Part shown: positions 9,483 through 61,285 of the stretch, piece by piece | Numbering within the stretch: position 1 is the first letter of the stretch | How the letters are laid out: each line of letters begins with the position of its first letter | From: an uncultured Bacteroidales bacterium | GTDB taxonomy: Bacteria; Bacteroidota; Bacteroidia; Bacteroidales; CAIWKO01 | Length of the DNA stretch: 64,000 bases | Assembly: GCA_964469155.1 (NCBI GenBank) | Contig: CAYXXU010000006.1 | Location: 7,591 to 71,590 of the forward strand | Reading direction: 5' to 3' | Notes under the pieces: model-generated | Told to the model about the DNA's origin: nothing | What the model saw: the letters and a program-made list of their open reading frames with translations, nothing else | The model's database searches: none | Made by a program: the position numbers and the translations under genes

Positions 9483-10310
9483 TTAAAGCTTAATAATTTT
9501 CTTAACTATCCTATCATCCCTGCGTATCATCACCATGAAATAATTGCCTGTAGCATATTCTTTCAGGTCGAGGGAAAACTTATTGCGCCCGGACTGCAGT
9601 TGTTCGGTTCTTTCGAGCAATATCTTGTAGGTATCGTCGTAAAGTTGCAAACGAATCTCTTCCGCCAGCTTTACATCCATTACTATTTCTACCAGACCAT
9701 TGGTGGGGTTGGGATAGACTTCTGTCAGGGTCCACTCGTCCGTGGGATACTGAGCATCCACTTCTGCAGGGCTCAACAGCAGGGTATCATTGGGCAGCAG
9801 TATGGGATTGGGGCTGATCTCGTTGCTATCTGCAGGCGGCTGCAACGGTGGATCTACCTTATCAGCAACTACTGCTGCTTTCGGCAATTTCAGATTCACC
9901 TGATAGCGACAGGTTTTTTCCACCTGCCATTGGCCACGGGGATCGCCACGCTGAAAATCTTCGTAGGCCAGCCGCAGGGAAGTATCTTTAGGAAGGTAGT
10001 CACCTCCCCCTGCCCTACCATCCATATCTTCCGCAGTAAAATAATACGTATTGTCAATGGTCCATCGGTTCATCTCAAATTCGAAATGCCCCAGGCTGTC
10101 GCTTTGGGTGGTGACTTTAGGATTGTCATGACTTTTCATGGAAACTTTAATGTTTTCAATGGGCACCTTACTCAGCAAGTCGTTGATGTTTCCGTTGATC
10201 TTATAAATGGTCTCAACAACGCCGTATTGTGCGGCCACTGTAGCCGAAAAACCAAAGATCATGGCCAGCAGCGAGGCCAATGCTTTCAGCAGGTAGTATT
10301 TTTTAGTCAT
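9483..10310 (-). CDS. Secreted protein: rSAM-associated-lipoprotein-like domain, Pro-rich linker, T9SS type A sorting domain
   Basis: C-terminal VYPNPTNG...GNYFMVM..KIIKL; N-terminal QYG..KING..PIENIKV..EDMDG..GGDYLPKDT. Confidence 0.75.
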   Translation of the reverse strand: MTKKYYLLKALASLLAMIFGFSATVAAQYGVVETIYKINGNINDLLSKVPIENIKVSMKSHDNPKVTTQSDSLGHFEFEMNRWTIDNTYYFTAEDMDGRAGGGDYLPKDTSLRLAYEDFQRGDPRGQWQVEKTCRYQVNLKLPKAAVVADKVDPPLQPPADSNEISPNPILLPNDTLLLSPAEVDAQYPTDEWTLTEVYPNPTNGLVEIVMDVKLAEEIRLQLYDDTYKILLERTEQLQSGRNKFSLDLKEYATGNYFMVMIRRDDRIVKKIIKL

Positions 10311-10544
10311 GTTTTTTGGGGTTGTTATGGGATTTAGATGGTTTGAAGGGGGAAAGGTTTAATTTGGATTGGAATATTATGTCGGAAGACTTAAGAAGAC
10401 CGAAGTTCGAAAACTATCAGCTTTGAGGAAAAAGCCGGATAGGCCTGGTTTGAAAAATAAATTATACACCTGTCGGTTTGTTTTTGTTTGAAAAAAATAA
10501 TTTCTTACATTTGCTACATTAAATACCCCCCAAAAATTAATGTC

Positions 10545-11177
10545 ATGGCTCCATTAGATTCAGATTTGAAGTACCGTGCATTGGTTGTAATTGGAATGCC
10601 CAAAAAAGTGAACGACTATATTCCCTGGGCAATAGCCACGCACGACAAAATGAAGGCAAACCCGCGTTTTGCAGCTTTACTGCCCAAGCTGGCCACCTTT
10701 GAAACGGATACAAAGAACCTGCGCGATGCACAAAATGGCTGTACTTCAAAGCCTCCTACCGTAAGCACCGAAACCCGAAACTATTATTGGAGATTAAGCA
10801 AAACCGATATCAGGATTCTGAAAGTCAATGTACAGGAAATGGCCGACCTTGACCCACGAAATGCTTCGGTTATAATTACAGATGCCGGTTTTGAAGTCAA
10901 ACAGGTGGCTATACGTCATAAGCAAAAAAACATGGCGGTTGATGGAGCCGAGGAAGGCGAAGTGAAATTGATTGCCGCAGGTCGTGGTCCTCACAACTGG
11001 CGCGTGAGCTATGACCAGGAAAACTGGACCGTACTATTAGCCAGCAAAACCAGTTTAAAAATATCCAAAGGCAATACGCCCGGCGAGGTGCTGTATTTTC
11101 AGAACAGCTTGCTGGTTGATGAAAGCAAATCGCCTGAATGGAGCCCAAGCATCAGGGTCGTAGTTAAAAAACATTAA
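10545..11177 (+). CDS. Hypothetical protein, helical N-domain plus FN3-like C-domain
   Basis: TACATTTG promoter at 10506-10513 before ATG 10545; beta-rich C-terminus with NWRVSYD..W, TPGEVLYF, EWSP. Confidence 0.75.
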   Translation: MAPLDSDLKYRALVVIGMPKKVNDYIPWAIATHDKMKANPRFAALLPKLATFETDTKNLRDAQNGCTSKPPTVSTETRNYYWRLSKTDIRILKVNVQEMADLDPRNASVIITDAGFEVKQVAIRHKQKNMAVDGAEEGEVKLIAAGRGPHNWRVSYDQENWTVLLASKTSLKISKGNTPGEVLYFQNSLLVDESKSPEWSPSIRVVVKKH

Positions 11178-11270
11178 TTGGTTTTACGGTAAGATTTTAG
11201 TCTCAGATTGTTCATGAGAGTGCAGACAAATCCAATGCCTGCTTGCTGATTTTTTATTGTAACAACCTAC

Positions 11271-11501
11271 TTTCAAATTACCGAACCATCATTTCAATTC
11301 ACCGAAGGATCGTTTCAAATCATCGAGTGGTCGTTTTAAATTACCAAAGGGTTGTTTTAAATCATCGAGCAGTCGTTTTAAATTACCGAACGATCATTTC
11401 AAATCACCGAACGCTCGTTTCAAATCATCGAGTGGTCGTTTCAAATTTCCTAAGGGTTGTTTACAATTTCCGAACGATCGTTTTAAATCACCGAACCTAA
11501 A
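11271..11501. repeat. Tandem array of about 11 x 21-bp units, consensus TTTYAAATCACCGAACGATCG
   Basis: Units at 11271, 11292 ... 11481 with no indels. Confidence 0.9.
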
Positions 11502-11730
11502 AATGAAATCACCGAGCCTTAATTTAAAATTTAGTAGCGATGATGTAAAACTAAGGCATTGGGATGCATTGGGAGGCATGATGAGCAGAAGGGTGAAAAG
11601 AAGTTAAATAAAATCCACTTTGAATGATTTGTTGAAATGTTTTTCTTCTTTTGAGGTATATATTTTGTCGATGAAGTTTGTCAAAGAATAGGAGGAAGTG
11701 AGTAGTTGATAACGAATAGTTAATAGTTTA

Positions 11731-11833
11731 AAAAGGCTTGTTCCGAACAGGGCAGGCCTCTTACTCCGATCGGGGAAATGCTTTCCCCGTGTTCTCTTAA
11801 CAGAAAAGGCTTGTCAGCAAAGGGCAGGCCTTT
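11731..11833. repeat. BIME/REP-like triple-hairpin element
   Basis: Direct repeats AAAAGGCTTG-N8/9-AGGGCAGGCCT at 11731-11759 and 11804-11831 flank hairpin CGGGGAAA-TGC-TTTCCCCG (11771-11789). Confidence 0.65.
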
Positions 11834-11937
11834 AACTTTTAGGCATTCAGCTACAAATCCAAAAGATATTTTCCCTCCCCTTTTGCCAATCGGCCAATAA
11901 TCATTAATTTTGAAGAAGATTATTCAAACAGCAAAAC

Positions 11938-13680
11938 ATGAAACTATCCGATATCGACAGCGCTATTCTGGCAAAGGCCCAACTCTGGACGGGCGAAAAC
12001 TTCGACGCCGAAACCCGCCAACAGGTCAGGCAACTGATGGACGAAAACCCCGCCGAACTTTTTGAATCCTTCTATACTGACCTCGAATTCGGTACAGGCG
12101 GTCTGCGCGGCATCATGGGCGTGGGAAGCAACCGCATGAATAAATATACCGTGGGCATGGCTACACAGGGGCTGGCCCACTATGTGAATAAGATGTTCGC
12201 CGGCAAAACACAGAATAAAATTGCCATCGCTTACGATTCCCGCAACAATAGCAAATACTTTGCACAAATTGCCGCTGAAATCCTATCGGCCAACGATTGT
12301 AAGGTATACCTGTTCTCAAACCTCCGTCCTACGCCTGAACTATCGTTTGCCATTCGTTATCTGGGCTGCCAGAGCGGTATAGTCATCACGGCTTCTCACA
12401 ATCCCAAAGAGTACAACGGTTATAAAGTGTATTGGGACGATGGCGGGCAGTTGGTCAATCCTCACGACAAAAATGTGATAGAAGAAGTGCGTAAAATCAC
12501 CTCTCCCGAACTGGTTAAGTTCACGGCAAAACCCGAAAATATTGAACTGATAGGAGCAGCGGTTGATACCGCTTATCTTTCAAGAGTAAAAAAACTGTCG
12601 TTCATCCCCGAACTGATCAAAAAGAACCATGATTTCAGCATAGTTTACACTGCCCTGCATGGCACCGGAATTACTTTGGTTCCCCAGGCACTGAAGGAAT
12701 ATGGCTTTGGGAACATTACTCTGGTGGAAGAGCAGGCCATACCCGACGGCAACTTCCCTACTTTACAATCGCCCAATCCCGAAGAAAAAGCAGCCCTGTC
12801 TATGGCTATGGAAAAAGCCGTAAAAATCAACGCCGACCTGGTGCTGGCCACCGACCCCGATGCCGACCGCGTGGGCATTGCTGTGAAAAACGACAAAGGT
12901 GAATTTGTGCTGCTGAATGGTAATCAAACCGCATCTTTGCTGATCTATTACCTGCTTACACAGTGGAAAAGAGAGGGTAAACTGCAGGGCAAGGAATTCA
13001 TAGTTAAGACCATAGTCACCAGCGAACTGCTGGCAGAGATGGCTAAGAAATTCGGGGTGGAGTATTTTGATGTGCTGACGGGATTCAAATATATTGCCGG
13101 GATCATTCAGAATTTGCAGGGAATCAAAACTTTTATTGGCGGAGGCGAAGAAAGTTATGGCTATCTGGTGAGCGATTTTGTGCGCGATAAGGATGCGGTT
13201 ATTTCATGCTGCATGATAGCCGAAACGGCCGTGTTTGCCAAAGAGCGGGGCATGTCACTATACTCTTTGCTGCTTGAGATATATAAGGAGTATGGCATGT
13301 ATTACGAAAGCCTGTTGTCAATCACCAAAAAAGGCAAATCCGGTGCTGACGAAATAAAACAAATGATGGCTGATTTCCGCAGCAAGCCGCCGAAAACCAT
13401 AAACCAATCGAAAGTGGTCATGATAAAAGATTATCAACTGCAAAAAGAGATGAACATGGTTGATCAATCTGTCAAGGCCATTGAAATGCCCAAATCGGAT
13501 GTGTTGCAGTTCTTCACAGAAGATGGCAGTAAGATCACGGTGCGTCCTTCAGGCACCGAGCCCAAGATCAAATTCTATTTTGGCATCAAAGCCAAACTGA
13601 AAAATATTGCAGATTTCGAAATAACCGAAGCGAAATGTAGGGATAAAATCGAAAAAATCAAGTTGGATCTATCCTTATAG
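11938..13680 (+). CDS. pgm: Phosphoglucomutase/phosphomannomutase
   Basis: EFGTGGLRG, ITASHNP, DPDADR, GGEESYG, RPSGTEPKIKFY; promoter TAATTTTG at 11905-11912. Confidence 0.95.
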   Translation: MKLSDIDSAILAKAQLWTGENFDAETRQQVRQLMDENPAELFESFYTDLEFGTGGLRGIMGVGSNRMNKYTVGMATQGLAHYVNKMFAGKTQNKIAIAYDSRNNSKYFAQIAAEILSANDCKVYLFSNLRPTPELSFAIRYLGCQSGIVITASHNPKEYNGYKVYWDDGGQLVNPHDKNVIEEVRKITSPELVKFTAKPENIELIGAAVDTAYLSRVKKLSFIPELIKKNHDFSIVYTALHGTGITLVPQALKEYGFGNITLVEEQAIPDGNFPTLQSPNPEEKAALSMAMEKAVKINADLVLATDPDADRVGIAVKNDKGEFVLLNGNQTASLLIYYLLTQWKREGKLQGKEFIVKTIVTSELLAEMAKKFGVEYFDVLTGFKYIAGIIQNLQGIKTFIGGGEESYGYLVSDFVRDKDAVISCCMIAETAVFAKERGMSLYSLLLEIYKEYGMYYESLLSITKKGKSGADEIKQMMADFRSKPPKTINQSKVVMIKDYQLQKEMNMVDQSVKAIEMPKSDVLQFFTEDGSKITVRPSGTEPKIKFYFGIKAKLKNIADFEITEAKCRDKIEKIKLDLSL

Positions 13681-19570: not shown

Positions 19571-19618
19571 GGTCAGGTTGTTTTTGAGAGGGTTTGGGAG
19601 GGCGAAGATAAGGAAAAA

Positions 19619-19716
19619 TGAGCCACTGGCCATGAGCCAATAGCTAATAGCCATGAGCCAATAGCCACAAGCCATGAGCCACTTGCCACGAGCCATAAGC
19701 CATGAGACAATAGCCA
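19619..19716. repeat. 14 x 7-bp tandem repeat (NNAGCCA)
   Basis: tgagcca ctggcca tgagcca atagcta atagcca ... read directly. Confidence 0.9.
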
Positions 19717-19737
19717 CATTAGAGTGAGTGTGCGATT

Positions 19738-20010
19738 GCGCACAAGGCATCGACAATTGCGCACAGGGGTTGTACGGTCGCGCACAAGGGTGGTGCAGTT
19801 GCGCATGACGGTGATGCAGACGCGCACAAGAGTGATGCAGCGGCGCACAGAGGTGATGCAGTGGCGCACGAGGTATCGACATGACACTTTGTCATAGTTG
19901 CAGGAAACTTTGTCATAGATGCAGTCGCGCACAAAGGTGATGCAGTCGCGCACACGACCGATGCGGTTGCGCACAGGGGTGATGCAGTCGCGCACAAGAC
20001 CCGTGCAGTC
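19738..20010. repeat. Tandem array of 13 x 21-bp units, consensus GCGCACAAGGGTGATGCAGTC
   Basis: Units at 19738 ... 19990; units at 19885 and 19906 diverge but keep the register. Confidence 0.92.
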
Positions 20011-20257
20011 GCGCGGAGCTAACTACAAGGATTGAGTTAATTATTAGTGATTTATGATTTTGGGTTTTTATTGAAAAATGCAGTTTGAATGGGAAATTGA
20101 TAAAATTTGAAGAAAAATGTCTGAACCCTGCCTAAAGGGCGGCAGGCAGGCGCTGATTAAAATGATTTGAATGATTAAGATGATTCAGGCGGAGCCTGAA
20201 AGAATAGAACGACGGCGGTGGAACCGCCGCCGAACCGGGCAACATCAACACTTTCGG

Positions 20258-51765: not shown

Positions 51766-52007
51766 TGTACACCGGATGACCCCGGAAATTTTCTGAAGTC
51801 ATTGCCTGCACACTGGCATACTTTCGGAAAATTTCTGATGTTATTCTTTGTACACCGGCAGGCGTCCGGAAAAAATCTGAAGTTATAACGGGTACACCGG
51901 CATACGCCCAGGAAATTTCTGATGTTATCCCATGTTCACTATCATACGTTCGGAAAATTTCCGGAGTCGTCCAATGTCCAAGAACATACGTTCGGAAAAA
52001 ATCCGTT
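51766..52007. repeat. Tandem array of about 5.5 x 42-bp units
   Basis: Units at 51783, 51825, 51867, 51909, 51951, 51993; consensus CGGAAAATTTCTGAWGT-N9-TACACCGGCATACGTT. Confidence 0.85.
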
Positions 52008-54178: not shown

Positions 54179-54325
54179 AATGACCACTTTTGACCATCAA
54201 TGACTATTAATGACCACTAATGACAATCAATGACAATCAATGACAATTAATGACCATCAATGACTACTAATGACTGCTAATGACTATCAATGACTATTAA
54301 TGACAATCAATGACTATTAATGACC
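54179..54325. repeat. 15 x 10-bp tandem repeat AATGACNNYY
   Basis: TGAC falls every 10 bp from 54181 to 54321; followed by TAAAAGCC/TAAAAGTC run to about 54365. Confidence 0.95.
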
Positions 54326-59339: not shown

Positions 59340-59612
59340 GGAAGACGGAAGTCCGAAGACCGGAGAAGGAATTTGAAAATTATACAATTATACAATTTGA
59401 AAATTAATTAACCGGCTGCATGTAATAATGACTATTAATGACAACTAATGACCATAAATGACAATGAATGACAATGGATGACAATAAATGACCATCAACC
59501 TGTCCCGTACATAAAATGTCGGGATGACCATTAATGACGACCAATAACCATTTCCTAAAAGTCTAATAACCTAAAGCCTAAAAGCCTAAAGTCAAAACCC
59601 CTAAAAGCCTAA
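59340..59612 (+). repeat. Ordered mosaic of short tandem repeats
   Basis: GGAAGAC 7-mers, then AATTTGAA/AATTATAC 8-mers, AATGAC 10-mers (with 26-bp hairpin insert), AAAGCCT/AAAGTCT run. Confidence 0.85.
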
Positions 59613-60961: not shown

Positions 60962-61089
60962 GTCAATCATCCTCAAATCCTGACAGGGTGACTATGAAAA
61001 GGCATGTGTGTAGGAAATCCACCCTGTCAATAACACAAATGTCCCAATTGTTCCACTAAATTTCTTATAAAATTACATAACCGACCGCT

Positions 61090-61236
61090 ATGTTGCAAAA
61101 TCCTTACGCCATGTTGCTAAATCCTTAAGCCATGTTGCAAAGACCGTACGCCAAGTTGCGGAGACCGTACGCCAAGTTGCTAAATCCGTGCGCCAAGTTG
61201 CAAAGATCGTGCGCCATGTTGCAACAACCGTGCGCA
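61090..61236. repeat. Tandem array of 7 x 21-bp units, consensus AWGTTGCAAADWCCGTRCGCC
   Basis: Units at 61090, 61111 ... 61216 with no indels. Confidence 0.92.
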
Positions 61237-61285
61237 AGTTTCTAACTCCAAACTATCGGCATTCCGAACTCCAAACTTCTATTTA

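Follow-up and report, generated by a model that had tools for sequence, protein, structure and literature searches.

A helical/FN3 protein gene and its downstream 21-bp tandem array suggest an undescribed protein-plus-repeat module

Within a 64,000-nucleotide stretch of DNA from an uncultured Bacteroidales bacterium (assembly GCA_964469155.1, contig CAYXXU010000006.1, positions 7,591 to 71,590 of the forward strand; hereafter the window), a gene for a 210-aa protein is followed by a tandem array of 21-bp units. The locus raises the question of whether gene and array belong together and, if they do, what the array is for. A preliminary description, made from the sequence alone, had taken the two for a cassette-like pair in which the protein may bind the array, and had named as the check a survey of homologs for period-21 arrays within 500 bp.

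The survey covered ten sequence classes with at least 200 bp of DNA downstream of the homologous gene, spanning 25-99% identity and 34-70% GC; the L007/L008 class, with at most 189 bp downstream, is uninformative. Arrays of period 21, 42 or 84, comprising about 9-23 units, were detected downstream by Tandem Repeats Finder (TRF) and autocorrelation in all 10 of the 10 classes, a positive outcome of the proposed check. Over the 450 bp that follow the stop codon, the best autocorrelation lag was 21, 42 or 84 for almost all loci offering 200 bp or more, the exceptions being L003 and L018, whose short contigs hold little array (TRF sees the array start only in L003). The same autocorrelation level is reached by only 2.6% of the 450-bp windows in the array-rich 64-kb window, and no further array with a period that is a multiple of 21 was found elsewhere in the other sampled loci. 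The presence of an array in ten of ten classes cannot be due to chance and therefore favours a gene-plus-array unit, which is strongly supported.

Across the family the array is conserved in its period, size range and position. Unit sequences are unrelated between classes and are unrecognisable at 40% protein identity, and the fixed period holds where neighbouring units have diverged into higher-order repeats of 42, 84 or 126 bp. A search of metagenome contigs for the array motif returned nothing, and no description of a pairing between this protein family and a repeat array was found in the literature, in a search of limited reach.

In the window, TRF reports the array at 11271-11496 (period 21, 10.8 copies, 73% matches) with a continuation at 11481-11530, while printing the DNA in register reveals units from a degenerate one at 11250 to ~11543, about 12 in total; higher-order periods of 42, 84 and 105 are present as well. 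Allowing up to three mismatches, a degenerate 21-mer pattern has 10 matches, all within the array, compared with 0.03 expected. The measured gap of 93 bp between the stop codon and the first good unit, like the copy number from TRF, agrees with the 11 units about 95 bp downstream of the preliminary description, and the feature exceeds the end assigned there (11501), with the array reaching ~11543 and a conserved block following at 11604-11654. A CGATCG/GATC palindrome had also been noted in the array and proposed as a methylation target. The perfect palindrome (AACGATCGTT) does exist, but in a single unit only (at 11473), and the array contains three GATC where ~1.1 would be expected. With one perfect palindrome and three GATC in the array, no such palindrome in the units of other classes and no enrichment of inverted repeats across the family, the idea of a methylation target is weak and is not supported.

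The array evolves in a manner of its own. Between the window and L004, a close relative, the region from ~10650 to 12200 differs by 13 substitutions only, all of which fall in four neighbouring units (11396-11472) and at the variable positions of the unit, with the number of units unchanged; a third strain (run X7) combines L004-like variants upstream with a window-like array. This clustering and the mixed combination in X7 mark the change in the array as exchange between units, not point mutation. Copy number changes too: five samples (L020-24) encode an identical protein and carry 17 or 23 units, the difference of 126 bp being one higher-order repeat. At greater distance, where the proteins of the window and L001/L002 are 72% identical, the unit consensus is identical at 18-19 of 21 positions, while the spacer between gene and array aligns at only ~50% of positions. 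Because the consensus is kept where the spacer has decayed, the unit sequence is under selection within the lineage, drifting together with the protein.

The gene itself begins at ATG 10545. This start is shared as methionine by 11 homologs (62-99% identity), and because these homologs begin there, the upstream TTG at 10488, which opens a longer mechanical open reading frame (ORF), was rejected as the true start. The Bacteroidetes promoter consensus consists of -33 and -7 elements, and the promoter-like site TTTG-N19-TACATTTG, 31 nt 5′ of the ATG, fits this consensus; the same motif is found at -40 from the gene of L019. No signal-peptide-like hydrophobic stretch was read at the N-terminus of the protein, and no paralog was found in the window.

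The protein represents a large family without name or annotation. The window member yielded nothing above cut-off in Pfam and NCBIfam, yet searching 1.84 billion representative proteins with a profile retrieved 513 clusters at E ≤ 1e-3, 136 of them at E ≤ 1e-10. Almost all members measure 200-235 aa, they are called 'hypothetical protein' wherever their source names them, and their carriers are mostly uncultured bacteria from wastewater, sediment and other environments. The family is basic, with a median pI of 9.4 and a pI above 8 in 87% of members. In AlphaFold2 models the N-terminal domain consists of three long helices plus one short, framed by two strands (predicted local distance difference test score of 90 when modelled alone from 36 sequences), and the C-terminal domain is a beta sandwich. 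The latter is matched to many FN3 chains by Foldseek with probability 1.00 (target-normalised TM-score ~0.5-0.6), 10 of 63 family members match Pfam fn3 (PF00041), and FN3 domains of gp130 and titin are among the matches of the family profile to PDB sequences. The modelled seven-strand beta sandwich thereby confirms the C-terminal half as a predicted FN3 domain. Both the own promoter and the helical/FN3 fold that had been read from the letters are thus supported, the former by the promoter-like site and the latter by the agreement of models, Foldseek and Pfam matches. A defence, phage or plasmid origin of the family was also considered and rejected: PADLOC returned no match, the family was not found in phage records, 72,556 plasmids or two viral-contig scans, and its PHROGs matches are limited to the FN3 tail-protein kind.

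Gene and array are separated in a recurrent manner. In AT-rich loci the spacer always carries a strong hairpin followed by a T-run, resembling an intrinsic terminator; arrays begin at the T-run or just past it, often with degenerate units, and the order of gene, hairpin plus T-run and array is found in every class with a recognisable hairpin. According to spacer folds and the alignment with L001/L002, the spacer of the window corresponds to this strong hairpin and T-run, its own stem being weak, indeed too weak for the consensus terminator scan. The distance from the stop codon to the first clear unit is 90-100 bp in seven classes, with L013 (22 bp), L019 (121 bp), L003 and L014 (both ~250 bp) as outliers. 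Behind the array, the conserved block carries an exact TAnnTTTG in L001, and weaker similarity between the window and L001/L002 continues for ~70 bp past 11654, to ~11725. The block is promoter-like and would be directed away from the array. No exact TAnnTTTG points into the array on either strand, and a dedicated array promoter was rejected on this ground. A terminator-like hairpin (11771-11789) lies behind the promoter-like block, ~140 bp before the phosphoglucomutase start, and a short transcript could arise in this stretch. The features of the window and the arrays of the sampled classes are listed in Table 1.

Table 1. Coordinates of the module in the window, and arrays downstream of homologous genes (identity is that to the window protein).
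Feature or locus	Position	Strand	Identity	Description
Promoter-like site TTTG-N19-TACATTTG	10483-10513	+		31 nt 5′ of the ATG; exact TAnnTTTG at 10506
Gene, 210-aa basic protein	10545-11177	+		pI 9.4; N-terminal helical bundle ~22-113, linker, C-terminal FN3-like domain ~139-206
Spacer	11178-11270	+		Weak stem ~11222-11242; T-run 11250-11255 merging into degenerate unit 11250-11270
Head-to-tail 21-bp array	11271-11543	.		Consensus TTTcAAATcACCGAAcGgTCG; ~10 good units, degenerate units at both ends
Conserved block TTAAATAAAATCCACTTTGAATGATTTGTTGAAATGTTTTTCTTCTTTTGA after the array	11604-11654	+		~50 bp common to the window, L001 and L002 (tail alignment)
L004			99%	Same synteny as the window; array same as the window's
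L001/L002 (uncultured Bacteroidales metagenome-assembled genomes)			72%	13 units of TTTTAAATTACCGAACGGTTG
L003			68%	Array starts at contig end
L005/L006			40%	9 units of TCCATTGTTCCGGTCAATGAG
L019			38%	Periods 21, 42, 84; ~13 units
L010-12				14.7 units of GTTTGTTTACATACAGCAGGA
L013 (70% GC)				7.3 units of 42 bp
L014/15				84 bp x 2.7
L016				84 bp x 3.2, weak
L020-24				Periods 21, 42, 126
L009			25%	11.5 units of GAGATAACATTTTGAAAGAGT

The module was found whole in differing neighbourhoods among the sampled loci, in keeping with the cassette-like pair of the preliminary description. In the window and L004 it lies between a gene for a protein with a type IX secretion system (T9SS) tail and the phosphoglucomutase gene. 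In L001 a LytTR gene is found upstream and, on the downstream side, genes for an unknown protein of 578 aa and for a TIR protein, whereas L002 carries the module of L001 with a different downstream gene, for an unrelated membrane protein. The module of L010 stands behind glycosyltransferase genes and that of L013 before ATP synthase genes. Such unrelated neighbourhoods around the same module argue that it behaves as one unit, which would be inherited, and sometimes relocated, as a whole. In contigs of eight DNA runs, whose coverage is poor, no joint skipping the module (an empty site) was found. The array of L005 continues in frame (1526-2119) into ~115 aa matching the C-terminal end of T9SS cargo (Por_Secre_tail), an arrangement that suggests a gene truncated by the insertion of a block of LytTR gene, gene and array.

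Several observations on the flanking genes accompany these. The upstream neighbour in the window (9483-10310, -) encodes a protein of 275 aa that carries a T9SS sorting domain at its C-terminus and matches TIGR04134 ('radical SAM-associated putative lipoprotein') in its N-terminal part at E = 8e-11; T9SS-tail genes near the module are likewise found in L014 and L020/L021. Immediately 5′ of the module, L001 (326-697, 123 aa) and L005 (214-597, 127 aa) each carry a stand-alone LytTR gene. Close relatives differ in the DNA that follows the module, where defence- or toxin-antitoxin (TA)-like genes are found (L001 2136-5850, L002 1163 onward and L019 4128-4831), including a TIR_2 protein in L001 and a nucleotidyltransferase/HEPN (MNT/HEPN) pair in L019.

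As to what the array is for, a DNA platform is favoured because the array is non-coding, has a terminator in front and no promoter facing it, and adjoins the gene of a basic protein. The array may serve as a helically phased DNA platform for the assembly of the adjacent protein or its complex, a reading to which we assign a probability of roughly 0.4. The module would then be self-contained and inherited vertically, comprising, in order, a promoter, the gene for the basic helical-bundle/FN3 protein, a hairpin with T-run, a non-coding array of 9-23 units and a short conserved tail. Binding of the array by the protein is plausible, and one protomer or dimer would occupy each 21-bp unit. As 21 bp make two helical turns of B-DNA, all protomers would be placed on one face of the helix, and the outcome would be a cooperative nucleoprotein filament on DNA between the terminator of the gene and the outward promoter-like block. 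This site hints, as speculation, at a switch or insulator. The protein and the sequence of its units would evolve in step, so that units differ by lineage with the geometry fixed. We infer that the platform is more likely DNA than RNA. A wider formulation, in which the family represents a new kind of protein-plus-repeat system and the helical/FN3 protein forms a filament, one unit after another, on its own 21-nt or 21-bp array, be it DNA or RNA, in defence or conflict along the lines of type III TA or VIPR, or as a new chromosomal switch or insulator, with the fast-changing units setting its specificity, is advanced tentatively and must be regarded as doubtful.

A number of results weigh against a DNA platform. 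The N-terminal helical domain has no significant match among PDB structures (best E = 0.5), structural search found no DNA- or RNA-binding fold in the protein, and FN3 folds usually bind proteins or carbohydrates. A family-wide palindrome or dimer-operator core was rejected, a column-permutation test being non-significant in six of ten classes and marginal in four; as units show no excess of inverted repeats, nothing points to binding by a symmetric dimer. An autoregulatory operator with a titration array was rejected as well: position weight matrix scans found no unit-like site upstream of the gene in eight classes, and because such sites occur neither in the promoter of the gene nor elsewhere in the window and loci, the simple operator-plus-titration model fails. 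Intrinsic curvature as a sequence-independent function of the array was rejected, since a rough wedge model gave inconsistent results and did not predict the window array to be curved (the same rough model puts the twist per unit at 709-722 degrees, about two turns). None of the RNA runs searched for the stretch contains it. Finally, the window holds other period-21 arrays that are not beside a gene of the FN3 family, so that period 21 may partly be a habit of this genome.

The array could instead be an RNA partner, produced by transcription through the hairpin or from a promoter that escaped recognition, with one 21-nt unit per protein in a ribonucleoprotein possibly devoted to defence, much as in type III TA pairs (ToxI/ToxN), sponge RNAs or guides made of repeats, as in VIPR. 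A basic protein, unit sequences specific to the lineage, strain differences concentrated in the array, a polymorphic copy number and the defence- or TA-like genes that border some loci (TIR in L001, MNT/HEPN in L019) all suit such an RNA; gene, palindromic terminator and tandem array are also the parts of type III TA systems, in reversed order (PMC3401426), and a protein with a tandem-repeat guide RNA has a precedent (10.64898/2026.04.26.720920). Yet a strong terminator separates gene and array, and no -7 promoter motif faces the array. A known RNA family was rejected, as the array has no Rfam match even at E = 10, and so was a structured RNA, with fold z-scores of -0.22 and +0.29 on the two strands (pseudoknots not explicitly modelled). 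A strict 21 across 25% identity and 34-70% GC is natural on DNA, while on RNA it would signify only a fixed footprint; several arrays are nearly uniform (92% matches in L010), which makes a code in the variable positions unlikely; and neither PADLOC nor the phage, plasmid and viral collections searched gave a match. On balance an RNA partner, though the main rival of the DNA platform, is unlikely. A different DNA-binding protein might also use the array, for instance one of the LytTR type, to control the outward promoter-like block or local transcription, with the FN3 gene being no more than a neighbour that is regulated by it or inherited alongside. LytTR sites are 9-bp direct repeats spaced 21 bp, in line with the period of the array. 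Stand-alone LytTR genes stand directly upstream in two of the ten classes (L001 and L005; Pfam E ~1e-7, 43% mutual identity), and a conserved promoter-like block follows the array. No LytTR relative is present, however, in the 64-kb window or beside the module in the other eight classes, and the genes downstream bear no relation to one another across loci. Known LytTR sites lie within promoters in groups of two or three, unlike 9-23 units behind a terminator, and such a platform for another protein appears improbable.

A coding role has to be weighed as well, the array then encoding a heptad-repeat peptide (seven aa per unit; FKSPNDR in the window, KLPNGCF in L001) with the upstream protein chaperoning or modifying it. 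In favour, every period is divisible by three; the window, L004, L001 and L002 all have an open FKSPNDR/KLPNGCF frame (which in L001 and L002 has an ATG and forms a 122-aa ORF); and in L005 an open frame continues past the array into a C-terminal domain of the T9SS type. Across the classes, on the other hand, no strand or frame is consistently open: stops number 5-9 per plus frame and 1-2 per minus frame in L009, and interrupt all plus frames in L014 and all six in L016, while the frame called as a gene in L013 ends after 8 of 14 units. In the window, six-frame analysis upheld what had been read earlier, namely two stops in the minus LKRSFGD frame and no start in the plus KSPNDRF frame: the FKSPNDR frame is free of stops, and its first start codon is ATG 11502, so that in the window, as in L004, no in-frame start precedes the last units of the array. 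A third plus frame, overlooked in that reading, holds a mechanical 85-aa ORF starting with TTG (11243-11500) and is interrupted in the near-identical L004. The variable positions of the unit show no period of three, some 8 of 10 AT-rich arrays would by a rough estimate show one open frame by chance, and the L005 fusion resembles a truncated neighbouring gene. Coding heptads as a general rule were rejected on the six-frame analysis and the missing codon periodicity, and a peptide of this kind seems decidedly improbable. The array might, lastly, be a neutral minisatellite that arose by slippage behind the terminator of the gene and has no function. Intergenic arrays whose period is a multiple of 7 are numerous elsewhere in the genome of the window, copy number and the order of units shift quickly, and heptamer-based repeats are known in some Bacteroidetes (PMC4679880). 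Against this, all 10 of the 10 classes have an array and retain its period, position and size range, even at 25% identity and 70% GC; the unit consensus is kept where the spacer decayed, and the other sampled loci lack arrays with multiples of 21 elsewhere. A functionless minisatellite is very improbable.

The genome of the window seems unusually rich in tandem arrays, with periods that are mostly multiples of 7. A second and cleaner period-21 array (658-949; 13.9 units of CCTTTAAGGGAAGTCACCACT, 87% matches) is flanked by a DUF6660 gene (177-500, -) and, in divergent orientation, by small genes of the heavy-metal-binding-like kind (1130-1339, 1365-1736), without an FN3-family member alongside; a mechanical 160-aa ORF (618-1100, -) reads it as the heptad VVTSLKG. 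A cluster at 19618-20014, between a GH3-like gene (-) and a gene at 20218, starts with 12.7 copies of the heptamer ATGAGCC and continues with period-21 arrays at 19759-19873 and 19918-20014, with units like GGTGATGCAGTCGCGCACAAG. Further intergenic arrays are located at 61086-61249, 51766-51961, 54179-54324 and 59426-59492; they comprise 7 copies of 21/63 bp after the gene of an NtrC-like regulator, 4.7 copies of 42 bp, and arrays of 10/30 bp. Outside the window, the array of L014 is followed at 1632-2559 by a second, large one, 10.4 copies of an 89-bp unit that contains hairpins (GTCATGCTGAAC...GTTCGGAATGAC), and in L007 a hairpin motif similar to these 89-bp units, GTCATTCCGAGCGAAGCGAGGAATC, stands after the gene.

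Pairings of a fixed protein family with a repeat array have marked new biology before, as in CRISPR, type III TA systems, iterons and VIPR. Here, a family of hundreds of sequence clusters keeps a 21-bp array at a fixed place across 34-70% GC, and protein and array are without annotation. If the protein reads its own array, the helical bundle plus FN3 domain would be a new nucleic-acid-binding architecture, and the lineages would supply natural, mutually orthogonal pairs of protein and repeat; if it does not, a fixed geometry with free sequence still needs explaining.

Among known systems, the phased direct repeats of iteron plasmids offer one parallel: in P1 (repA-incA) and F (repE-incC), direct repeats of ~19-22 bp lie directly downstream of the gene of their binding protein, much as the module has phased repeats beside its gene (period 21/42/84, ~720 degrees per unit). 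Rep, however, is a winged-helix protein and no Rep initiator is among the listed PDB matches of the module protein; iterons belong to plasmid replicons, whereas the module is chromosomal, among housekeeping genes, has no match in the 72,556 plasmids and shows neither origin features nor a second set of iterons 5′ of its gene. Centromere arrays (ParR, omega, TubR) are short direct repeats coated cooperatively by a small protein encoded alongside, and share with the module a short direct-repeat array beside the gene of a small protein. They differ in that no ParA/ParM/TubZ NTPase is among the Pfam calls of the module's neighbours, the module protein has no ribbon-helix-helix or helix-turn-helix fold, and the array stands behind the terminator of the gene and not in its promoter. 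Unlike CRISPR arrays, the units of the module abut head to tail without unique spacers, and no cas family is found among the flanking genes with Pfam calls (some flanking genes have none).

Type III TA systems (ToxIN, CptIN, TenpIN) resemble the module in having a compact gene, a palindromic terminator and a tandem array with lineage-specific repeats (PMC3401426). Their order is promoter, repeats, terminator and toxin, with ToxI made of 5.5 copies of 36 nt (PMC3401426); the array thus precedes the toxin, whereas that of the module lies downstream of the gene and has 9-23 units of 21 nt. Their antitoxic RNAs are pseudoknots, whereas no RNA structure signal was obtained for the module at the z-scores given above, in which pseudoknots were not explicitly modelled; and the toxin is an endoribonuclease of the ToxN/AbiQ type, compared with a helical bundle plus FN3. 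No ToxN-type chain is among the listed PDB structure matches or the PDB-sequence profile matches, and the module has no PADLOC match. VIPR also consists of a single protein gene with non-coding tandem repeats that alternate conserved and variable positions and with a conserved tail, but Vipr has an RRM/RAMP fold, its repeats are 5-nt YNNGG and its loci are mostly viral (10.64898/2026.04.26.720920), in contrast to helical bundle plus FN3, 21-bp units, several almost invariant arrays and no viral matches. The heptamer repeats and minisatellites of Bacteroidetes and cyanobacteria are intergenic, head-to-tail arrays of period 7 or its multiples with variable copy number (PMC4679880), as are several arrays of the window; they are scattered and have no fixed gene partner, whereas the array of the module is tied to one family across phyla. 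By these comparisons the module is not a type III TA, iteron/Rep, centromere, CRISPR or VIPR system. It fits no known family, and its lineage-specific repeats beside a conserved gene suggest an undescribed protein-plus-repeat module.

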